Source: a virus (taxonomy: Duplodnaviria; Caudoviricetes). From it: a stretch of DNA of 33,442 bases. Under the pieces are notes generated by a model. That model saw only the letters and a list, made by a program, of their open reading frames with translations, was not told the origin of the DNA and ran no database searches. The position numbers and the translations under genes are program-made. Position 1 is the stretch's first letter; every line of letters starts with the position of its first letter. Location: the IMG/VR virus record IMGVR_UViG_3300035135_000065, positions 1 to 33,442 of that record; one strand, written 5' to 3'. Shown in pieces: positions 675 through 33,222 of the stretch.

Positions 675-2579
675 TTAATATTCTCCTTTAGCTTCAAAAA
701 TCTGATTATCCCAAGTTTTTGCTTGATAACCCTTTCTTTCATCATAATTAATCATATTTAGTTCAAGCATATCTTTTAATCTACCTGATAATGTAGGTCT
801 TTTTATATCCATAATTGCTGCTAAAACACCAACCTTTACCCAAACATCTATAGGATTATTTGGATTCTTTTCTTTTTGATACTCTTCAATTGCTTCAATT
901 GTTTTTACTCTAGCAGGAGTATAAATACTTGTTTTAGGTTTTTCATCAGTCAATGCCAATACGCCTGATGTAACACCTTCATATCCATACAATGTAAGTT
1001 CTTTGAATTGGAAATATAAATCATCTATAGGCGTACCATCTTTAACTAATGTTTGCTTCAAAGTAACAAGCATAGCCTTGTCATCACTATTCTTATCTCT
1101 ATCGACTCTAAATTCATAATCAAGAGCTGCTGGTAATACTGAGCTACCTCTTGCTCTACCATTAGAACCATGACCTGTATGATGCACTATGACCATAGAT
1201 GCTTGGAATTCTTCTTTAAGCTCGTCAATACGCTGTATAAACTTATTCATGTCCTCAGTGCTGTTCTCATTAAGACCATAGTTTCTAGCTAAGGTATCAA
1301 CAATAATCATGCCTACATTTCCATGCTCTCTTTCTATATCTCTACAAACTTCTTGCAACATAGCAAATTCAGCATCATCACCTATTCTTGAACCTCTATT
1401 AGATATCAATAATGGTGCTTCAGATAAACTTCTGCTATAGAACTGCTCATAACTTTTAATACGTCTAGCAACAGCAGTATGACCCTCACCAGCTAAATAC
1501 AGCACTGTAGAAGGTTTAGTATCAAATCCATAGAAATCTTTACCTGATGCAATAGAACAAGCCATAGCAATAGCTATAAATGACTTACCACTCTTAGGTG
1601 CTCCATAAATACTTGTAACTGTAGCTCTTTCTATACATCTATCTACTAACCAGTCAGGCTCAGTCATTTTTTCCATTATCTCATTGACTGTTTGGAAATA
1701 TAGAGAACCTCTTGGACGTTCTACTTCGTTTCTATCTATATAATCTTCTAACTCCTTTGAACTTTTAAAATAACCTGATTCGTATGCATCGTATAAATCA
1801 TCCTTATCATTAAAGTCTGCTGGTGGTTGTATAACCTTAACCTTGCATTTGTTCTCTTTTAAGAATCGAGATAATTCATTTGCACACTTAATTCCTGCTT
1901 CATCATTGTCAGGAAATATAACTACGTCTCTCCCATATATAGGACTCCAATCTGCTTTTTTCCAAGCATTGACCCCACCATGCCAAGTTGCACTGTCATA
2001 ATCCCAAATGCTCTCACATCCTCTCAGAGCCTTCTCACCTTCATTTATAATAATAGCCTTATCAGGGTACTTATTTGTGTAATAAATAGGTAGAGAGCCT
2101 TCAGGTCGCTTCATAGACCAAGTGCTATCAGGATTAAGGGTAAATGGTGCGTATTTTTGTTTTATATGATGCCCTTCAGGAAATCTTAAAACCATAAAGT
2201 TATCAGCATACTTGACCTTCACAATAGCTTGTTTGTAAAGGTCAATCATCTGCTCTCGAGAGAATGACCTAGCATTACTTGTGGTTTCGCTTTTAGGGGG
2301 GTTAAAACCACTTAATAAGGAGTCATTAGATTGTAATGCTAAGTCATAACCAAACTGTTTTAAAATAGAATTGACATCTTGATTCATGTGCTTAATTAAA
2401 TCAATTAATCCACCACCTAAATCGTTTTCAAAATCCCACCAAGTTCCAGCATCTACGTTAACTACTAGTGAACCATGATTACCATATCGCCATTCATGTG
2501 ACCTTTTGGTTCTAGGCTCACCTAGTAGTTGTAGTGCAACTTCAGGTGCTATTCTTTGCCAGTCTATCTGTTGCATCAA
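675..2579 (-). CDS. primase-helicase (TOPRIM + RepA/AAA_25 SF4 helicase, C-terminal wHTH-like region)
   Basis: TOPRIM motifs IINEGEKA and FPDNDEAG; Walker A GAPKSGKS; Walker B IIVDT; IVHHTG and RGSS motifs of RepA-type helicases. Confidence 0.92.
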   Translation of the reverse strand: MMQQIDWQRIAPEVALQLLGEPRTKRSHEWRYGNHGSLVVNVDAGTWWDFENDLGGGLIDLIKHMNQDVNSILKQFGYDLALQSNDSLLSGFNPPKSETTSNARSFSREQMIDLYKQAIVKVKYADNFMVLRFPEGHHIKQKYAPFTLNPDSTWSMKRPEGSLPIYYTNKYPDKAIIINEGEKALRGCESIWDYDSATWHGGVNAWKKADWSPIYGRDVVIFPDNDEAGIKCANELSRFLKENKCKVKVIQPPADFNDKDDLYDAYESGYFKSSKELEDYIDRNEVERPRGSLYFQTVNEIMEKMTEPDWLVDRCIERATVTSIYGAPKSGKSFIAIAMACSIASGKDFYGFDTKPSTVLYLAGEGHTAVARRIKSYEQFYSRSLSEAPLLISNRGSRIGDDAEFAMLQEVCRDIEREHGNVGMIIVDTLARNYGLNENSTEDMNKFIQRIDELKEEFQASMVIVHHTGHGSNGRARGSSVLPAALDYEFRVDRDKNSDDKAMLVTLKQTLVKDGTPIDDLYFQFKELTLYGYEGVTSGVLALTDEKPKTSIYTPARVKTIEAIEEYQKEKNPNNPIDVWVKVGVLAAIMDIKRPTLSGRLKDMLELNMINYDERKGYQAKTWDNQIFEAKGEY

Positions 2580-3202
2580 AATGGAATATCATCATCTGTT
2601 AATAAATCAGTATTCTTGCTAATCTGCTCATTAACTAAGTCAGATAAACCATCGTTAGGACTTTTAAATCCATCGTCTGCATTTGTATCACCATCGTTGT
2701 CATAAAATGCTGGTATTTCAAAGTTAGCAAATCTAGGTGCAAATTTACTAAATTTAAAATCTATTTCAGATGACCTACCCATGCCAACTTGTATTTCTTT
2801 TGAACCAACAAATTCAACAACAGGTAATGAATCACTGTTTACATCCATTTGATTCCAAAAGCCAGTTAATATCGTATTAAAAGCTCTTGATTCAGCAACA
2901 GTGAATCTACTCCAAATTAGTGCATGGTCATGTCCGTAAGGCATAACTACACAACTGAAGGCTCTTTTCCAATCGTCTGCTGGTTTAGGTTCTGCAACTC
3001 CAAACTTAGCATCCCATTGATATTGATATTCTCCTGCATATCGTCCCCATCCACTTTTAAAAGTTGCAGGGTCTAATTGCAGATATTTAATATCAATTGG
3101 CGTTTTACCATTAACAAAGAACTTTTGGTCTGCTGTTTTAAAAGCAAGATAATAGTCTTTGCTATCTCCATTGGAACTACTCATTCCACCTAATATATCC
3201 AT
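2576..3202 (-). CDS. putative single-stranded DNA-binding protein
   Basis: Acidic C-terminal tail ending DDDIPF; aromatic-rich core; next to primase-helicase; RBS GGAGAG. Confidence 0.7.
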   Translation of the reverse strand: MDILGGMSSSNGDSKDYYLAFKTADQKFFVNGKTPIDIKYLQLDPATFKSGWGRYAGEYQYQWDAKFGVAEPKPADDWKRAFSCVVMPYGHDHALIWSRFTVAESRAFNTILTGFWNQMDVNSDSLPVVEFVGSKEIQVGMGRSSEIDFKFSKFAPRFANFEIPAFYDNDGDTNADDGFKSPNDGLSDLVNEQISKNTDLLTDDDIPF

Positions 3203-3216
3203 ATACTCTCCTATGG

Positions 3217-3405
3217 TTAATGTATTGTTTTCTCAATACTGTTTAAATAATCAGTTTCAAGTTGGGTATGACACCTTTCCTTAAAACTTTCATAATCCTC
3301 GTCATTTATAATTCCGAGAAATTCGCAAGCATTTTGAATCTTCTCATAGGCAAACCTACAATAATCTTCAAAGTCCTGCTCAAGCAGGTAGCTGTTTAAA
3401 TCCAT
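3217..3405 (-). CDS. small acidic hypothetical protein
   Basis: ORF 3217..3426; start at MDLNSY (3405) reduces overlap with the resolvase. Confidence 0.6.
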   Translation of the reverse strand: MDLNSYLLEQDFEDYCRFAYEKIQNACEFLGIINDEDYESFKERCHTQLETDYLNSIEKTIH

Positions 3406-3814
3406 CTGCTCTTTGTATGATTTCATCTAATCTGTCACATATATCTGATAATGGACACATATATGCACACTGCCAGTTTGGTTTCTCAAATTGATTAAAT
3501 AGCCATAGTGGTATTACAGCCATAATACTTCTTCTGTCAAACTTGTATATCAATATAGGAATCAAGTTATCACCAGCACTATCTATTGCTTGTTGCCACC
3601 ATTCGTTCTTGTAAATGTTTTGCTTGCCATTGTTCTTATATCTTTTACATTCAATAGCAAAGTTCCTGAAATAAATGTCAGCCATACCTTTTGTTTGATA
3701 CTGGTCTAGGTTTCTTTTTACTCTCTCCTCTAAACCTTTTTCTTCTAACACTGCATTGAGCTTGTTGACTATTAATCTCTCAAAAGCTGCACCTTTATTT
3801 CTACCATTTACCAT
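3380..3814 (-). CDS. Holliday junction resolvase-like PD-(D/E)XK nuclease
   Basis: RNKGAAFER...GMADI...AIECKRYK...WWQQA pattern of phage Hjc-like resolvases; start 3814 has a GAGGT RBS. Confidence 0.82.
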   Translation of the reverse strand: MVNGRNKGAAFERLIVNKLNAVLEEKGLEERVKRNLDQYQTKGMADIYFRNFAIECKRYKNNGKQNIYKNEWWQQAIDSAGDNLIPILIYKFDRRSIMAVIPLWLFNQFEKPNWQCAYMCPLSDICDRLDEIIQRADGFKQLPA

Positions 3815-3815
3815 A

Positions 3816-4376
3816 TTAAACCTCGTTACCCCAACAGTCCCAACCATCTACTTTTTCTCTTGCAAATAATTCTATTCTAGGCAATTTACCACAAAGATTT
3901 TCAATTCTTTGTCTTGTATCTAATGGTTTCTTGCTATGTTTATCCCTTGGCTCTTGTATAATTTGTTTAACATTTTTTGCCTGTCGCCAATATTTACCCT
4001 TTAATGCTAATAAACAAAACTCTGCATTTTGATTAGTGTAATGCCCCATGCCTGAATATGGTTTGCTATAATCCTTTGTCATTTTTACCCAAACAAATCC
4101 CATTGTCTTATATGTAAAACCCCAATGTTTTATAACCTCAAAACCATAATCTAATAAACTAGAAGTACACCAAAGAAATAGCATACAGTTTTCATCTGCT
4201 ATATTTTTTATTGGTATTGCACAAATATCTTCTAATGACATTGTTGGATAGTGCTTTTCTGCACCACCTGCACCATTTGGATTTTTAAATCCTGCACCTT
4301 TTCTAGTGTCGTTATACTTCCAAGGTGGGTCAGCATAAATTATGTTATATTTTTTATTAGGTAATGATATCTGCAT
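3816..4376 (-). CDS. MT-A70 family N6-adenine methyltransferase
   Basis: IIYADPPW catalytic motif, HYPTMSLEDI, LFLW, FVWVK, HSKKP, RIELFAR. Confidence 0.93.
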   Translation of the reverse strand: MQISLPNKKYNIIYADPPWKYNDTRKGAGFKNPNGAGGAEKHYPTMSLEDICAIPIKNIADENCMLFLWCTSSLLDYGFEVIKHWGFTYKTMGFVWVKMTKDYSKPYSGMGHYTNQNAEFCLLALKGKYWRQAKNVKQIIQEPRDKHSKKPLDTRQRIENLCGKLPRIELFAREKVDGWDCWGNEV

Positions 4377-4483
4377 TAATCTAACTCTCTAATTACATAT
4401 ATAAATGCTAATACACTTATTAATGCACCTATAAATATTAATCCAAATACTCCTGCAATAAAATATAATATCCACTCAAGCAT
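4376..4483 (-). CDS. 35-aa single-pass membrane peptide (MLEWILYFIAGVFGLIFIGALISVLAFIYVIRELD)
   Basis: Own translation; hydrophobic; start and stop overlap both neighbours. Confidence 0.7.
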   Translation of the reverse strand: MLEWILYFIAGVFGLIFIGALISVLAFIYVIRELD

Positions 4484-4640
4484 CGTAATCAGTCCTTACT
4501 ACTTTGCCACTCATATATGTTACTTCCCTGTAATGCTTACCAGCACCTTTTTGAAAATAATATGTTTTGATTTGCTTATCTAGTTTTTCTAGTTCTAGTT
4601 CTTTTCTACGCTTTTCAACTGCTGCACTATTTTGACCCAT
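4476..4640 (-). CDS. 54-aa hypothetical protein (MGQNSAAVEKRRKELE...)
   Basis: Own translation; AAGGAG RBS; overlaps neighbours. Confidence 0.72.
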   Translation of the reverse strand: MGQNSAAVEKRRKELELEKLDKQIKTYYFQKGAGKHYREVTYMSGKVVRTDYDA

Positions 4641-4788
4641 GATTATTCTCCTTGTAAGAAACCATGCCTAGCTTTAGCAATAGCTGAGTAGCAGATTCGA
4701 TATTCATATTATTTGTGATTGCAAACACCTTGATATCCTTATGTAATTCTTCAGGAATCCAAAGTGCCTTTTTTGTTTTTTCGTCCAT
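4627..4788 (-). CDS. 53-aa putative ribbon-helix-helix DNA-binding protein (MDEKTKKALWIPEELHKDIKVFAITNNMNIESATQLLLKLG...)
   Basis: Own translation; GGAGAG RBS; short strand + IPEELHKDIK helix + second helix as in Arc/CopG/ParG-type proteins. Confidence 0.68.
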   Translation of the reverse strand: MDEKTKKALWIPEELHKDIKVFAITNNMNIESATQLLLKLGMVSYKENNHGSK

Positions 4789-4806
4789 AATGACTCTCCG
4801 TTTTTA

Positions 4807-4835
4807 ATATTAATATTATTTTGATAATAAAGCAA
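4807..4835 (-). promoter_or_regulatory. putative sigma70 promoter for the RHH/replication operon
   Basis: TTGCTT (4835-4830), 17 nt, TAATAT (4812-4807); -10 lies inside palindrome TAATATTAATATTA (4805-4818). Confidence 0.55.
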
Positions 4836-4846
4836 AAACTTTATTA
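4825..4846. promoter_or_regulatory. palindromic operator TAATAAAG-N6-CTTTATTA
   Basis: Perfect 8-bp inverted repeat overlapping the -35 boxes of both divergent promoter candidates. Confidence 0.55.
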
Positions 4847-4872
4847 CCTACCCTTCCAAAAACCCTTATACT
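4844..4872 (+). promoter_or_regulatory. putative sigma70 promoter for plus-strand sRNA
   Basis: TTACCT (4844-4849), 17 nt, TATACT (4867-4872); predicted +1 near 4879 is the first base of the hairpin. Confidence 0.45.
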
Positions 4873-4878
4873 TAGTTC

Positions 4879-4940
4879 AAGGGCGTAAGATAAACTCTCC
4901 ATAAATCTAAATACTCTCATATATCTATTCGCCCTTTTTT
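4879..4940 (+). ncRNA. candidate small RNA: closed stem, 29-nt loop with two anti-Shine-Dalgarno-like motifs, 3' U-tract
   Basis: AAGGGCG (4879-4885) pairs with CGCCCTT (4930-4936); AGATA pairs with TATCT; T6 at 4935-4940; loop has AACTCTCCATA and ATACTCTCATA. Confidence 0.5.
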
Positions 4941-5068
4941 AAAATCTGAGTTACGTTATTAATTACAAGCACTTTTTCATTTTTACCTTGTTTATTTAAA
5001 CGATTTTGTTTTGTGTACTCATAACAATAAATGTACTTACCTCTCTTGTTTATATATAGCTTGTTCAT
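4925..5068 (-). CDS. 47-aa basic hypothetical protein (MNKLYINKRGKYIYCYEY...)
   Basis: Own translation; TAATG coupling with the exonuclease stop. Confidence 0.5.
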   Translation of the reverse strand: MNKLYINKRGKYIYCYEYTKQNRLNKQGKNEKVLVINNVTQILKKGE

Positions 5069-5898
5069 TACAACACCAAATCCACAACATTAGGACTATT
5101 GTAAATACTTAGAGGTTTACCCTTTTGATACTCTTTATAATCATTCAGGTATTGCTCCATCATAGTCCAGCCATAATCCATTTGTTCTTTTGTGATTCTA
5201 AATACCTTAGATGCAAAAGGCTGTACTTTCTCTTGGGCTATAAATAAGAAATCAGTTACTTCATATCCTGCCATCTCAACACCTCTTCTATAATAAGCAG
5301 CTTGCATATCATAGCCATACTTCTTAACTGAATAATTAAAAGCATGAGGTTCGCAAGATATAGTAGTTTTATAATCTATAACAACTATCTTATTATCTGA
5401 GTTAGGTTTATCTAAAGGCGGACACATAACATCAGGTCTGCATTTACATAGCACATCATCTTCATACCAATAGATACTTGCTTCAGGTATCTTGCCAGTT
5501 GCATTTAAGTAAGCATTACCCTCATATATCATATTCTCCTTCATGCCATTGATAATCTCAGCTTCATCTTCTTTTAGAACTATGAATCCTTGTTCTTCGT
5601 ATTCAGCCTTTTCTTCTTTGTATGCTTTGGTATATGGAGAACCTGTAAGCACCCTGACTTCTTTATCAAATGCTTCTTGTCCTTCTACTAATAAAGAATG
5701 TGCTGCTGTTCCAAACTTAAGTGCTGGAGTAGATTCAGAAGTATAGTTGACTGCATGAAGTTGGGATTGACCAAACCTTCTAACATAACTACTACTGATG
5801 CCTACGCTTGCATGATAGTCTTCATTAGGTAAGTCTTTATAAATAAGAGCCTGACCCTTTTGTTTTGATTCAAAGTTTTTAAGTGATTCTATTTTCAT
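5068..5898 (-). CDS. exonuclease VIII/RecE-like PD-(D/E)XK nuclease (DUF3799-like)
   Basis: NEDYHA..ISSS, FGTAAHSLLVE, CKCRPD, IDYKTT, YGYDMQAAYY, FLFIAQEK. Confidence 0.88.
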   Translation of the reverse strand: MKIESLKNFESKQKGQALIYKDLPNEDYHASVGISSSYVRRFGQSQLHAVNYTSESTPALKFGTAAHSLLVEGQEAFDKEVRVLTGSPYTKAYKEEKAEYEEQGFIVLKEDEAEIINGMKENMIYEGNAYLNATGKIPEASIYWYEDDVLCKCRPDVMCPPLDKPNSDNKIVVIDYKTTISCEPHAFNYSVKKYGYDMQAAYYRRGVEMAGYEVTDFLFIAQEKVQPFASKVFRITKEQMDYGWTMMEQYLNDYKEYQKGKPLSIYNSPNVVDLVL

Positions 5899-6071
5899 CT
5901 TGCTAATCCTAAAATGTATCTAACTTCATCTAGTGAATCTCTGACTTTGTATTCATCACCATTGACTTCAACTATGACATCACTAGTGAATTCATCTTTG
6001 TAGAAACCACTGATTGCTCTAGCAGGAATATTTAATTCACCACCACCCATTAAATTAAATGTTACATTCAT
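5895..6071 (-). CDS. 58-aa hypothetical protein, FlbD-like pattern
   Basis: Own translation MNVTFNLMGGGELNIPARAI...VNGDEYKVRDSLDEVRYIL; ATGA overlaps at both ends. Confidence 0.7.
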   Translation of the reverse strand: MNVTFNLMGGGELNIPARAISGFYKDEFTSDVIVEVNGDEYKVRDSLDEVRYILGLAR

Positions 6072-6145
6072 TTTCTGTTATTCCTGTCGTGCATTATTAA
6101 GCACATAACAGCTAACATTATTAAAGTTTGTGGACTCTCAATCAT
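6068..6145 (-). CDS. 25-aa hydrophobic peptide (MIESPQTLIMLAVMCLIMHDRNNRK)
   Basis: AAGGAGAG RBS; stop overlaps the next ATG. Confidence 0.55.
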   Translation of the reverse strand: MIESPQTLIMLAVMCLIMHDRNNRK

Positions 6146-6401
6146 TTTTACTCTCCTTTAAATTTAATTTATGAATCTTATAAATGCCTTTCTGATACTC
6201 AAAATCAGATTGCATATCTTCCCAAATCTCGTCTTTGATTTCTTGCTTGATAGAAGCATCAACTTTAGTAACTAATTCAAACTCAGACTTCTTAGGAATC
6301 CACCATTGATGATTCAATGATTTGTATTCAGGAGATGGTTGACCTGAGTCTTTCCATCTCCATTGAATAACACCATGTTTGGTATTGCACATTAGGTTCA
6401 T
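6138..6401 (-). CDS. hypothetical early protein
   Basis: 87-aa ORF with AGGAGAG RBS. Confidence 0.75.
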   Translation of the reverse strand: MNLMCNTKHGVIQWRWKDSGQPSPEYKSLNHQWWIPKKSEFELVTKVDASIKQEIKDEIWEDMQSDFEYQKGIYKIHKLNLKESKND

Positions 6402-6598
6402 TATTTACTCTCCTGTAATTTTTCAATTATATTTTCAATCACCTTTATTTCATTAGATATTTCTCTTGGAGTTTCTAATGCATAAGTTTCTTTGTTGTTC
6501 TTTACCCATGCTAAGTTATCTTGCTTGTCACATAACATATACTCAGCACATTCATGCATCAGTTCTATTTGTCTTTTGGTAAACTCTAATTTAACCAT
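6401..6598 (-). CDS. hypothetical early protein
   Basis: 65-aa ORF; AAGGAG RBS; TAATG coupling. Confidence 0.72.
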   Translation of the reverse strand: MVKLEFTKRQIELMHECAEYMLCDKQDNLAWVKNNKETYALETPREISNEIKVIENIIEKLQESK

Positions 6599-6744
6599 TA
6601 CTTCTTCTCCTTAGTTAATTTAACCTTATGCCCTTGAGCAATTAATCTAGCTCTCTTCTTAGCCATGTAAAATATATCGCTAGTCTTGATAGCAACCACC
6701 CAGCCTAAGCTAGGTAGTTGAACTTGTAGTGTGTATCTAGTCAT
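6598..6744 (-). CDS. 48-aa basic hypothetical protein (MTRYTLQVQLPSLGWVVAIK...)
   Basis: Own translation; GAGGAG RBS; fills the gap between coupled ORFs. Confidence 0.7.
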   Translation of the reverse strand: MTRYTLQVQLPSLGWVVAIKTSDIFYMAKKRARLIAQGHKVKLTKEKK

Positions 6745-6919
6745 TAGCCTTCTCCTCTAAACGAAAGATAATTCTTGACATATAACACTGACAGATATTG
6801 TGTAACTCAGTTGGCATATCTATACCTCTAACACTACACTCATGACCAACATTGCTTAAAAGCTCCCAAGCTCTATGAGCATCATTAATCATTTTTTGTG
6901 TTACTTTTTTCTTTTTCAT
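6737..6919 (-). CDS. hypothetical early protein, first gene of early operon
   Basis: AAGGAG RBS before ATG 6919; in-frame upstream ATG at 6949. Confidence 0.7.
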   Translation of the reverse strand: MKKKKVTQKMINDAHRAWELLSNVGHECSVRGIDMPTELHNICQCYMSRIIFRLEEKAND

Positions 6920-6954
6920 GTTATTTAACTCCTTATTTTTAATTAACATAACGT

Positions 6955-6984
6955 ATTATATACATAAATATACAAATATGTAAA
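6955..6984 (-). promoter_or_regulatory. early sigma70 promoter
   Basis: TTTACA (6984-6979), 18 nt, TATAAT (6960-6955) in an AT-rich gap at the lysis/early boundary. Confidence 0.7.
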
Positions 6985-6998
6985 TAAATATATAGAAA

Positions 6999-7445
6999 TT
7001 AAATTAAAGGATTCAGAACTGGAACTGAACTCAGATTGTCTAGTGTTTCTTTTAGAGAATCTAATTCCATAGATTCAGTGATAATTTTATTATCAAAAGT
7101 AAAATAGTTTTGTGATGATGTGTTTGCTTTGAACATGATTCGCTTTTCATCTTCATCAAAGAAAACAAAAGCTAGAATATCGCAAGTGTAATGTTTGTAA
7201 GTTTCAGACATTGACCTTGAATTTTCAGCAGCAAAGATAAACTTCTTTTCTTTGGTTGCTCTTCTGCTTTTTACTTGCACTGTATATTTAGCTGAACCAA
7301 ATTCAACCATTAAATCAGCAGGATGTTTTTCTTGGGTTGGATAACAAAAGTCAGCGTATTCAAGCAAGAAGGTTTGAACTAATGATTCTCCTAATGCACC
7401 AAGTCTAGAATTAGCTTGATGTTGGTCTGATGTTTTTCTTGGCAC
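6999..7445 (-). CDS. PD-(D/E)XK endonuclease (free-standing)
   Basis: LGALGESLV...ADLMV...VQVKS...CDILAFV pattern. Confidence 0.75.
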   Translation of the reverse strand: MPRKTSDQHQANSRLGALGESLVQTFLLEYADFCYPTQEKHPADLMVEFGSAKYTVQVKSRRATKEKKFIFAAENSRSMSETYKHYTCDILAFVFFDEDEKRIMFKANTSSQNYFTFDNKIITESMELDSLKETLDNLSSVPVLNPLI

Positions 7446-7854
7446 TTTTACACAAAGCTAGTTTTCTTGAATTCCTAGCTGCCCTATTTGGTGTTTGAAC
7501 TGCATACTTACTTCTTAATACTTCCTCTGATGCTTCTAACCAACAACCCATCTCCATCAGAGCTCGTGTTTGTCTAAAATTCATAAATCCTGTTATACCC
7601 ATTTGAAAAGCACAATCTATACATACTTCTTGAGCAAGTGGTGGAAAAGTTCGCCATACTTCCCATACCTTATCTAAATTATCTACTACTCTTTGTATAT
7701 CATTCTCAAGCATAAACATAGCTTCTTCTTCTGATATACCATTAGCTTCAAGATTACGACCTACACCAATTGATAATTTGTTAGCACTACAATGATAAGG
7801 AGTACATACTAACCCTTCATTCTTGATTAGCATTTCTTTAATGTTGTCGTACAT
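7411..7854 (-). CDS. endolysin, T4-type/GH24 lysozyme
   Basis: NEGL..TPY....LSIGVGRNL, FQMG, SKYAVQTPNRA. Confidence 0.9.
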   Translation of the reverse strand: MYDNIKEMLIKNEGLVCTPYHCSANKLSIGVGRNLEANGISEEEAMFMLENDIQRVVDNLDKVWEVWRTFPPLAQEVCIDCAFQMGITGFMNFRQTRALMEMGCWLEASEEVLRSKYAVQTPNRAARNSRKLALCKSAKKNIRPTSS

Positions 7855-8225
7855 TATTTTGTTAATCCTTTAGTTTTTTCATAACTTCTCATACCACCCA
7901 ATCCTAACATACCCATTAATACAGGTAGCATAGTAGAAGTATCTGCTTGTGGTACATCAATGCCAAATGGTGCTAATAAAGGACTAATGAGAAAGTTTAC
8001 TGCAAAACCTGCAACACATACCCAAGCTGTTGCTGGTCTCCAAGATGATTGAAACCAGTTACCTTTAGCTTCTTCTTTGTTTACTTCTATTTGTGCTTTT
8101 GCAATCTCATGGATATGCTTTTGCGACATAGTAGCAAGTTCATAAGCTATCTGCTGTTTTGTATCAGCATCAGGAATAAATTTATCTAGGATTTTGCTGA
8201 TAGGTTGAATAAGTTTGTCTATCAT
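7854..8225 (-). CDS. holin (3TM/GTA-type)
   Basis: SSWRPATAWVC and LMGMLGLGGMRSYEK; transmembrane segments; adjacent to lysozyme. Confidence 0.85.
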   Translation of the reverse strand: MIDKLIQPISKILDKFIPDADTKQQIAYELATMSQKHIHEIAKAQIEVNKEEAKGNWFQSSWRPATAWVCVAGFAVNFLISPLLAPFGIDVPQADTSTMLPVLMGMLGLGGMRSYEKTKGLTK

Positions 8226-8238
8226 AAATTGATGTTTG

Positions 8239-8439
8239 TTAGATTAAACCTCTAACGATAATAGTAATTAAGGATGCAACTATTGTTGTAAGACCGCCTA
8301 ATAGCCAAAGTTTCATACTATTTATTGATGCTTGTAAATCATCAGTTTTTCTATAAATAGTTTTCCACCTTTCTTCGCACATTTTTTCATGGACTCTTAA
8401 ATCTGAATGTACGTCATTAGCGGTCTTTCTAGCTGGCAT
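8239..8439 (-). CDS. small membrane-anchored lysis-module protein (XhlA-like)
   Basis: HEKMCEERW coiled coil plus C-terminal transmembrane helix. Confidence 0.65.
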   Translation of the reverse strand: MPARKTANDVHSDLRVHEKMCEERWKTIYRKTDDLQASINSMKLWLLGGLTTIVASLITIIVRGLI

Positions 8440-8694
8440 TTATTTTTCCTCTTCTACCTCAGCTTCAACATTAATAGCTCTATCAAATGATTCAATCACT
8501 AAGTTTTTGTATTCATTAGTAATAACATAATCATCATAGAACTCTTGAAGTCTAGCTAGTTTTTTACCAGCTACATTTAATTTAGCAGCTAAAGCCATTT
8601 GCTCTTCGTTTAAATCAGAAGCTCTGTATTCAGTGCCATTATATGTAATTATTACTGGTTCTTGGTTTTCCATCTTATTATCTTCTTTACTCAT
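8440..8694 (-). CDS. hypothetical protein (tail-fibre-associated, coiled coil)
   Basis: AGGAGAG RBS; ITYNGTEY..SDL.EEQ motif. Confidence 0.7.
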   Translation of the reverse strand: MSKEDNKMENQEPVIITYNGTEYRASDLNEEQMALAAKLNVAGKKLARLQEFYDDYVITNEYKNLVIESFDRAINVEAEVEEEK

Positions 8695-8732
8695 TTAACT
8701 CTCCTATAAGTTTATTTTAATTAAATTATATA

Positions 8733-9044
8733 CTAAGAAGCTAGCGTTTTTGTAATAGAAGTTGGATTTTTTTGCTCTTCTATTTGTGCATCTAAACTTG
8801 CTTCTAAATTAGCAACTTCTTCTTCACCCATAGCATCAATAACCCAACCTTTTACTATATCTGCTGTTACATCAGCAAATGCAGTAAAGTCTGATAAATC
8901 AGATGTATCTATTGTTTGTGTACCATAAGCGTGTCCTGAGCATTCTCCATCTACTTTTGATACTGACCAATGCACGTTATAAATAACGTCATCGTGTCCT
9001 TCTTCGTGTGGATGTACGTCCACTGTGTTTACATTCCATTCCAT
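8733..9044 (-). CDS. tail-fibre-associated protein
   Basis: DVIYNVHW...FADVT...VKGWV pattern; AAGGAG RBS; directly after the fibre gene. Confidence 0.7.
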   Translation of the reverse strand: MEWNVNTVDVHPHEEGHDDVIYNVHWSVSKVDGECSGHAYGTQTIDTSDLSDFTAFADVTADIVKGWVIDAMGEEEVANLEASLDAQIEEQKNPTSITKTLAS

Positions 9045-31601: not shown

Positions 31602-32090
31602 TTATACATATCCATGTTCTTTAGTTATTAAATTATTACTTCTTGCAATATTCATTGGTATGGTTTTAAACCAAGTACCAGCGTTTTTATTTTGTATCTC
31701 TGTTAAAAGTGGTTGATTCTTTAGGAGACTATGTGTAGCCACTGCATCGAGTATTGCATATTTTAACACCACCCTACCCAATGGATTTACTACACAATAA
31801 ATTATTCTATCTGTATTTTTTAATTTATCTATTTCTGTAGAACTTCCATACTTGCTTCTTGACCTAATTGTTATGTCATTGTAATTAAGATATTTAATAT
31901 CTCTTATTCTTAAACCACATTTAAATTTTTGTAATCCATAAGTAATAATCAAATCAGTTGCATTTTCAACATCATCATCAAAACTTGCTAATTGTATTTG
32001 ACAATTTAATTCTTTCTCAAAATAAGGAAGAACATAAGTTTGTTGTTGTTCTTCCCAGCTTTTATTCTGTTTAAAATTATCCATCATCAA
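31602..32090 (-). CDS. putative restriction-endonuclease-fold protein
   Basis: D....TDLII...GLRIR...DITIRS.....TE...DRIIY resembles a degenerate PD-(D/E)XK core; overlaps the MTase gene. Confidence 0.5.
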   Translation of the reverse strand: MMMDNFKQNKSWEEQQQTYVLPYFEKELNCQIQLASFDDDVENATDLIITYGLQKFKCGLRIRDIKYLNYNDITIRSRSKYGSSTEIDKLKNTDRIIYCVVNPLGRVVLKYAILDAVATHSLLKNQPLLTEIQNKNAGTWFKTIPMNIARSNNLITKEHGYV

Positions 32091-33222
32091 ACATACCAGC
32101 TTCTAATCCCCAAACATCATAACCATCCCTATCTTCTCTAGAAAATATATCTATTCTTGGTTCAGGACAAACTCTTTTAACAACGTCATAGAACTCATCA
32201 GGCTTTCTACTATGTTCCCTTCTTGGTGCATTAAAACAAGTAAAGAATTGTTTGGTTTCTATAAATGGTTGACCACCCTTTCTAGCTAATAAAACAAATT
32301 CACAATTAAATTGTGGTAATCCTACTGGTTGAAATCCACCATTCTTATGCCATACAAAAGTTGCAAGATATGTAAAATCCCAAGCATCAAGCAAATCAAA
32401 GCTAGGTCTTAAATATTTTTGTGTAGTCCATAACCATAAATGACATTCTTCATGTGCAGGTAATTTGAAATCTTTTATTTCATCTAATGACATTGTTGGA
32501 TAATCAAAAGATTCTTTATCAAAAGTTCTATTTTCCATTTGTATTCTTTCCATATCCCAAGGTGGGTCAATTACAATTGTTCTGTATTTCCCTTCAGGTG
32601 GTTTAATAGCCAATGCCTCCATTCGCATTTTCGCCTTTTGCTCTCTTGATTCAGCACTTCTTTCTTTTCTAATCTTAGTAGCCATTTTCAATATTTCATC
32701 TTCACCTTTAGCAACAACAACCTCTTGTTCTGCTTTATCTAAAGTTGCAATATCAGAAGCAGCACTAACAGATACCTTTCCAGCTTCGACAGATTTTTGT
32801 AAATCTTCTATGCCTTCTTTTTGTACTTTTTTTGCTTTCTTAACACTATCAATACCAACATTTAATTTTTCAGATGCATCCTTATTGCTAAAGTGGCTGA
32901 ATTCATCCACTTTTCTTCTGCCTTTCATATTAGCTAATCTAGCACCAATCATAGCCCTTTGACTTTCATTTAAGTGCCTGCGATTTAGGTTTAAAGAAAT
33001 AACATAAGATAAAGCATCTTCACCTTCATATTCTACAAAGTTAGGTTCTACACCTGCATCATTACAAGCATTGTATCTATTCCTGCCATCAAGAATCTTG
33101 CCTTCATGCAATACAATAGATTCCACTAATCCATTTTCTTTTATATCAGCAACTAAATCGCTATATTGACTTTCATCCATTAATGGAAATAAGTTTGCTA
33201 ATTCGTGATATTCATAATTCAT
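32077..33222 (-). CDS. ParB/Srx-domain + HTH + MT-A70 adenine methyltransferase fusion
   Basis: DIKENGL...ILDGRNRYNAC...NLNRRHL (ParB); IVIDPPW, YPTMSL, LWLW, HSRKP, RIDIFSR (MT-A70). Confidence 0.92.
   Translation of the reverse strand: MNYEYHELANLFPLMDESQYSDLVADIKENGLVESIVLHEGKILDGRNRYNACNDAGVEPNFVEYEGEDALSYVISLNLNRRHLNESQRAMIGARLANMKGRRKVDEFSHFSNKDASEKLNVGIDSVKKAKKVQKEGIEDLQKSVEAGKVSVSAASDIATLDKAEQEVVVAKGEDEILKMATKIRKERSAESREQKAKMRMEALAIKPPEGKYRTIVIDPPWDMERIQMENRTFDKESFDYPTMSLDEIKDFKLPAHEECHLWLWTTQKYLRPSFDLLDAWDFTYLATFVWHKNGGFQPVGLPQFNCEFVLLARKGGQPFIETKQFFTCFNAPRREHSRKPDEFYDVVKRVCPEPRIDIFSREDRDGYDVWGLEAGMFDDG

Follow-up and report, generated by a model that had tools for sequence, protein, structure and literature searches.

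A conserved hairpin of predicted SAR86 phages as a candidate small RNA complementary to GGAGAGU sites at the phages' own gene starts

The C4 RNA of phage P1 pairs in trans, through short seeds, with the phage's own replication or lytic-control region, while the RNAII of plasmid pMV158 is cis-encoded and acts through its 5' tail on one target of this rolling-circle plasmid; its partner CopG is an RHH protein. CopG, a small repressor, and the antisense RNAII are described as jointly limiting the translation of the replication gene (PMC4485353). C4 has an Rfam entry (PMC2864571), the CI RNA of phage P4 is processed from the transcript that it controls, with premature termination at the flanking seqA and seqC (PMC4825925), and the antisense RNA sar of P22 serves lysogeny and has a single target, the antirepressor gene ant (PMC12197685). 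In bacteria, NfeR1 and alpha-r14 (cuckoo) RNAs act as anti-Shine-Dalgarno (anti-SD) sRNAs of Alphaproteobacteria (PMC10746234). The start-associated sequence (SAS) of cluster K mycobacteriophages is 13 bp long and present in 11-19 copies; its description identified no RNA, and the authors left undecided whether RNA or protein is the binder (PMC3203893).

Here, we describe a locus that resembles parts of each of these systems. The window, i.e. the whole stretch of 33,442 nucleotides that was analysed, is a tailed-phage record (33.4 kb, 97% complete, 33.8% G+C) whose minus strand holds every ORF with a family match; unannotated plus-strand ORFs are present as well. The first-pass annotation had read a hairpin in it as an anti-Shine-Dalgarno RNA against the phage's own RBSs, and sequence comparison across relatives supports this reading: the hairpin at 4879-4936 is, in our judgement, probably a phage-encoded, trans-acting base-pairing repressor RNA of about 58 nt. 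The element and its surroundings comprise the following features.

4879..4940, plus strand: predicted small RNA, a two-helix stem closing a 29-nt loop
4879-4885/4930-4936: outer stem
4888-4892/4922-4926: inner stem
4893-4921: loop, 29 nt
4894..4902, plus strand: loop motif 1, ACUCUCCAU, complementary to GGAGAGU
4913..4920, plus strand: loop motif 2, ACUCUCAU, complementary to GAGAGU
4935-4940: T6 of the window genome
4867-4872, plus strand: TATACT, predicted -10 box of the RNA promoter
4844..4849, plus strand: weak -35-like TTACCT, 17 nt before the -10 box, loosely conserved
4627..4788, minus strand: 53-aa RHH-like protein encoded by the first gene of the replication-side operon
4807..4835, minus strand: divergent promoter of the RHH-like operon, TTGCTT-17-TAATAT, predicted from consensus and recurrence
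4825-4846: perfect 8-bp inverted repeat, TAATAAAG-N6-CTTTATTA, which extends into the -35 regions of the two divergent promoters

Sequence, coordinates, fold, the 29-nt loop with its duplicated motif and the distance of 6 nt from the end of TATACT to the RNA start at 4879 are as first described. The folding energy of -11.6 kcal/mol (z -3.96) was equalled by one of 200 shuffled sequences. Both loop motifs are near-invariant, with motif 2 reading ACUCUCU in distant clades, and the UCCAU part of motif 1 is also complementary to the AUGGA at the RHH-like and SSB starts. The motifs are separated by 8 to 15 nt of spacer, and no G was counted in 384 nt of it, compared with about 6% G in the flanks.

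The element was present at 160 of 161 loci retrieved via the neighbouring RHH-like gene, the exception having no upstream DNA; many of these loci are repeats of the same contigs, and they comprise 78 distinct element variants. Five weak RHH matches (L424-L428, E 4e-4 to 6e-4) are without the element and do not count among the 161. Of 24 loci with the start of the RHH gene in a second, independent metagenome set, 20 carried the element; among the four misses, two had less than 80 nt of upstream sequence and two had 849 and 1270 nt. Insertions of up to 1.8 kb occur between the element and the RHH-like gene, and conservation ends at GCCCTT, past which the DNA differs freely. P0065, used to look for carriers at greater distance, returned no locus, and thus no clade in which both motifs are changed was found.

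Several neighbouring structures were observed along the way. The 47-aa ORF at 4925-5068, which adjoins the element and whose last codons cross the 3' stem arm, is a variable insert; at its position, relatives have the exonuclease gene joined directly, or other genes. In L453, L455 and L457 (G013, G015 and G017), a gene and a duplicated promoter-like stretch are inserted between the element and the RHH-like gene, which consequently lies 0.7-1.8 kb away and retains its GGAGAGU; two of the inserted genes are DNA methyltransferase-like by N-terminal sequence. Other phages (L340, L376, L387 and L395) carry an unrelated conserved hairpin behind TATAAT, with an AGGGC/GCCCT closure and a different loop, which is possibly another small RNA family.

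Is the hairpin conserved as a structure? The first-pass annotation had named stem covariation across relatives as a check, and this was found. In a MAFFT alignment of 53 distinct cores that was not fitted to the structure, 92.0% of the stem cells were paired and 25 two-sided changes were counted, compared with 7.0±2.2 in shuffles, while controls slid along the same alignment gave 35-55% pairing. On this unfitted alignment RNAalifold recovered the outer stem only. A model-fitted alignment gave 94.1% pairing and 27 two-sided changes; its six outer pairs never vary, partly because the extraction pattern required them. In L468, which was found via the protein, the outer stem is changed on both sides from GGGC/GCCC to GGGU/ACCC. 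Such a conserved structure with compensatory changes, as judged from these alignments, is a feature expected of a trans-acting antisense sRNA. Rfam 15 gave no match in the whole window at the gathering threshold and, ranked by E-value within 4780-5000, a best E of 3 and no family; the first-pass annotation had not recognised the hairpin as P4 CI, P1 C4 or a CU-rich-loop bacterial sRNA. Literature searches returned no description of the hairpin RNA, which on this evidence would be a new RNA family.

The predicted partner of the loop is a heptad. ACTCTCC occurs six times in the window, always on the plus strand: in the loop and at the five RBSs listed in the first-pass annotation, all of which are in Shine-Dalgarno position before a start codon. 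The expected number is 2.58, and 2 of 100 shuffles reached six. As GGAGAGU of the minus strand, the five non-loop sites are as follows.

4793..4799, minus strand: start of the RHH-like gene, main conserved predicted target
3205..3211, minus strand: start of SSB, predicted target with covariation
8698..8704, minus strand: start of ORF 8440-8694, present in 11/14 genomes, likely a secondary target
6407..6413, minus strand: start of ORF 6138-6401, a variable gene, present in 1/5 genomes
6150..6156, minus strand: start of the 25-aa ORF 6068-6145

At the RHH-like start, GGAGAGT was found in 23/23 genomes or fragments, 3-10 nt from the ATG and with protein identities down to 37%. Among 83 distinct pairs of loop and RHH-like start, 82 have GGAGAGU and the exception, GGAGGGU, still pairs via G-U; in the window genome this pairing covers just 7 bp. 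SSB starts carry GGAGAGT in 9/18 genomes. None of the mapped head, tail or lysis genes of the 23 genomes or fragments has it, in a mapping whose automated start calls may err for some genes, e.g. the capsid-protease fusion. (In this mapping and in the 30-gene test below, the 25-aa ORF was entered as 6064-6141; its correct frame is 6068-6145.) GGAG is followed by AGT at 42/202 RBS-like sites, as opposed to 2/143 in 70 control loci and 0/21 in 24 low-GC control loci, counts that include non-independent orthologues and whose controls come from unrelated phages. The first-pass annotation had proposed repression of early and replication genes. This reading fits the RHH-like gene and SSB; ORF 8440-8694, however, is a conserved predicted target upstream of 8239-8439, holin and lysozyme, so that the target set is not confined to early genes. 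Two MT-A70 methyltransferase genes (3816-4376 and 32077-33222) are also present in the window, the first of which has AGAGAGU at its start, a site for which one of the best duplexes with the loop is predicted.

The SSB start shows the closest correspondence with the loop. Two genes matter here.

2576..3202, minus strand: putative SSB, named from an earlier label, its acidic DDDIPF tail and a gene order shared with CRP phages; no family match was obtained
675..2579, minus strand: primase-helicase, whose ATG is overlapped by the SSB stop

The loop of L170 can pair with the SSB region from Shine-Dalgarno to start over 15 contiguous bases. L196 again shows a 15-bp match, which differs from that of L170 by two neighbouring pairs: C-G has become U-A, and U-A has become A-U. 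In L422, L423 and L535, motif 1 is AUCUCC and the SSB site GGAGAU, and in L468 and L480 CCUU loops meet AAGGAGA sites over 9-10 bases. Where the SSB site lacks AGT and the loop contains CCAU, AT precedes GGAG in 20/34 distinct sites, compared with 1/68 in other genes. We compared cognate with non-cognate duplex energies for 30 genes by permutation: SSB had the best cognate advantage of all (p=0.0004; next 0.022), whereas RHH (p=0.069) and ORF 8440-8694 (p=0.088) did not reach significance. When each loop cluster contributed a single pair, the SSB median p was 0.0025 (13 clusters) or 0.006 (7 clusters), the test being powerless with 2 clusters; all these p-values are optimistic, owing to non-independence among relatives. 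For several SSB starts, the pairing is limited to 5-6 nt. In a comparison of runs allowing G-U with runs allowing A-C, the latter were longer in 32/61 SSB and 50/83 RHH pairs, an outcome not in favour of the pairing model; control starts show the same bias, and this run-length test is confounded by base composition. An exposed seed complementary to conserved target sites is thus found, with covariation that is significant for SSB only, and the way in which loop and SSB initiation region covary suggests base-pairing with mRNA of the phage itself. In the ACUCUCU clade (L545-L571), many SSB leaders have a second GAGA-like repeat between Shine-Dalgarno sequence and start codon, as if to offer two pairing sites.

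On which strand would such an RNA be made? The -10 box lies upstream on the plus strand in 78/78 distinct variants (TATACT in 44, TATAAT in 34). The sequence further upstream is of several unrelated types, and in 58/67 of a set that was partly selected for the box, the distance from box to stem is 6 nt. This own promoter signal, a further feature of trans-acting antisense sRNAs, argues for rightward transcription, although a consensus promoter scan did not call it, its -35 being weak. A terminator scan of 2800-9000 called none. The U6 end described for the RNA is present in the window genome and is a trait of this genome, not of the family: a U-run of at least 5 occurs in 13/78 variants and only U2 in 53. 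The 3' end is hence given as uncertain, between the stem end at 4936 and the end of the U-run at 4940 in the window genome, and may arise from weak termination or from trimming back to the stem.

The same data bear on an alternative in which the hairpin is read on the minus strand, in read-through mRNA, as a GGAGAGU decoy or binding site for a phage RNA-binding translational repressor. Unconstrained folding was more stable for the minus strand in 45/53 cores, and contigs from RNA libraries bridge the exonuclease gene and the element; a decoy would, moreover, be expected to share sequence with the targets too. The folding preference is weighed less because the G-rich minus-strand loop gains extra pairs, and the contigs, from 7 distinct runs, are unstranded, cover the region in pieces and may reflect DNA carry-over. 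The stem, on the other hand, contains 30 G-U pairs when read on the plus strand and 6 on the minus strand, the loop is G-free on the plus strand, and the fixed -10 box is a plus-strand signal. The clade-specific 12-15-nt matches over the SSB start codon would require repeated changes of protein specificity, and no candidate RNA-binding protein was found among the family matches of the window ORFs. We therefore hold the minus-strand decoy to be improbable.

A second alternative shifts the function to the DNA: the ACTCTCC heptads could be operators of the RHH-like protein, with the hairpin being secondary. Omega-type RHH repressors bind heptad repeats, and the 53-aa protein resembles them: Pfam Omega_Repress was matched by 14/32 homologues (best E 3e-4) and 56B_RHH by 3, and the comparison with PDB 2KEL gave E 0.059, so that the assignment as RHH-like is a weak one drawn from sequence. 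The KKALW strand of the protein hardly varies. In most genomes, the distance from the predicted -10 box to the RHH heptad behind it is 6-7 nt, the predicted transcript start being near 4800, and a search for a motif shared by all promoters found no other conserved one. However, operator spacing would have to tolerate a loop-motif spacer of 8 to 15 nt. A start codon follows 1-11 nt behind 64/76 non-loop GGAGAGT but behind only 321/1211 other GGAGNNN, the stem covaries as a structure, and the compensatory pairs at SSB are left unexplained. We thus give the operator reading little credence. A possible operator of the RHH-like protein is the inverted repeat at 4825-4846, of which a similar form occurs in 8/23 genomes and which is not family-wide. 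In one clade (L452, L454, L460 and L461), the element lies just 50-53 nt from the RHH-like ATG, a gap at which the two predicted promoters overlap (TTGATT -35 versus TATAAT -10).

Which bacteria would contain this RNA? The nearest cultured relatives of the window are CRP-822-type roseophages, with a major capsid protein 62% identical to that of CRP-811. All six element-bearing relatives that were looked up are in the published CRP-822-type set (Table S3), and 5 element-bearing contigs, all group V, are among 28 SAR86 rows of Table S5 (PMC12629253). Through these close relatives, the carriers, a group of marine phages without cultured members, are placed in CRP-822-type group V, and SAR86 is their predicted host. 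Three cultured CRP roseophages were examined and have no element; the cultured CRP phages show a divergent layout with rightward genes at the equivalent place, which speaks for the plus strand as the coding strand of the hairpin RNA. A pattern scan of GTDB gave six matches, five of them unrelated chance matches. The sixth is L305 (PAHA01000004.1), a 32,108-bp contig in a Flavobacteriaceae MAG with homologues of the phage's genes, likely a mis-binned phage contig. The term 'hfq' has no match in PMC3358033.

The CUCC/UCUCC core of the loop would pair with many Shine-Dalgarno sequences. The RNA could therefore be real and yet mainly silence host mRNAs whose RBSs are of the GGAG(AG) type, with a secondary role for the matches in the phage, and the large regulons predicted for NfeR1-type RNAs (PMC10746234) lend this some appeal. 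On the phage side, though, the full heptad is kept at specific genes and is found at no mapped structural gene, and the loop tracks the phage's own SSB. A mainly host-directed role consequently seems improbable to us. Still less plausible is that conservation reflects the minus-strand ORF 4816-4920, or that GGAGAGU is simply the host's optimal Shine-Dalgarno sequence: the ORF has an ATG in 59/65 distinct regions, followed by 34-36 codons in 32, and GGAGA-type RBSs are common in these phages, but its ATG lies within motif 2, its lengths range from 4 to 48 codons with 6/65 regions lacking the ATG, it has neither a Shine-Dalgarno sequence nor a family match, the mapped structural genes do without the heptad, and an ACUCUCC tail is not among the frequent 16S tails tabulated in PMC6107228. 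The ORF is not the conserved unit; its codon-type conservation, which the first-pass annotation had named as a refutation, is not seen, and this half of the explanation is largely refuted.

Taken together, we favour a base-pairing RNA and speculate on its mode of action as follows. An RNA of about 58 nt would be made rightward, back-to-back with the RHH-like replication operon. Its open loop would pair with the GGAGAGU sites of the RHH-like and SSB genes and block their translation through two redundant seeds, one of which could also cover AUGGA. The primase-helicase start has its own GGAG in 0/21 genomes, and the gene is likely translationally coupled to SSB; since the SSB stop overlaps its ATG and no Shine-Dalgarno sequence is present there, masking SSB would lower primase-helicase as well. 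If the RHH-like protein regulates the divergent promoters, repressing its gene in this way would complete a feedback loop. While accumulating during infection, the RNA would act as a brake that damps replication-protein synthesis, and this we consider its most likely role, in preference to a bolder control of carrier state or cross-immunity.

In that bolder version, which we regard as rather unlikely, the RHH repressor and the antisense RNA would form a plasmid-style double control on SSB/primase-helicase and on the gene that precedes the lysis cassette, hold the phage at low copy in starved SAR86 (a carrier state) and silence incoming relatives that share GGAGAGU; the co-changes of loop and SSB would then mark immunity groups. 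Classical prophage immunity, also raised in the first-pass annotation, is without support: a PF00589 integrase was searched for in 5 near-complete genomes and found in none, and an integrase is missing from almost all members of the phage group, according to its description (PMC12629253). If the RNA limits replication in such integrase-free phages, it bears on their persistence in slow-growing ocean bacteria. The hairpin would be a specific candidate RNA regulator in a marine phage group that is widespread and has SAR86 as its predicted host; the term 'small RNA' does not occur in the main text of the paper describing this group. The natural compensatory changes between loop and SSB provide ready-made reporter pairs.

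How does the hairpin RNA compare with the systems described so far? It has the defining features of neither NfeR1/cuckoo nor pMV158. Like NfeR1, it has redundant anti-SD motifs in unpaired sequence and variable stems, and it is predicted to occlude the RBS of a transcription regulator in a feedback loop, as NfeR1 does (PMC10746234). NfeR1, however, is chromosomal and 123 nt long, with three hairpins that each carry CCUCCUCCC (PMC10746234); here a phage would encode the RNA, whose single large loop contains two ACUCUC-type motifs, ACUCUCC and ACUCUC, that are not a 16S anti-SD sequence. The predicted logic of repressor plus antisense RNA is that of pMV158, but in place of the RNAII tail, loop seeds would pair with several distant sites of a tailed phage. 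As with P22 sar, a small phage RNA is predicted to block translation initiation of a phage regulator gene; unlike sar, it has several predicted targets and overlaps none of them (4879-4940, the nearest target being 4793-4799), in phages that show no PF00589 integrase. It is akin to P4 CI and P1 C4 in its short seeds for pairing in trans with the replication or lytic-control region of the phage itself. Those RNAs are processed from the same-strand transcript of their targets, whereas this one has its own promoter signal on the predicted opposite strand, RBS targets and no Rfam match. Finally, like the SAS, GGAGAGU is an extended motif, not complementary to 16S, at the RBSs of selected non-structural genes; unlike the SAS, it has a candidate partner RNA with a promoter signal, a covarying stem and target covariation. 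We anticipate that this locus offers a worked case for the question raised by the SAS, namely which partner recognises an extended RBS motif when it stands at selected genes.
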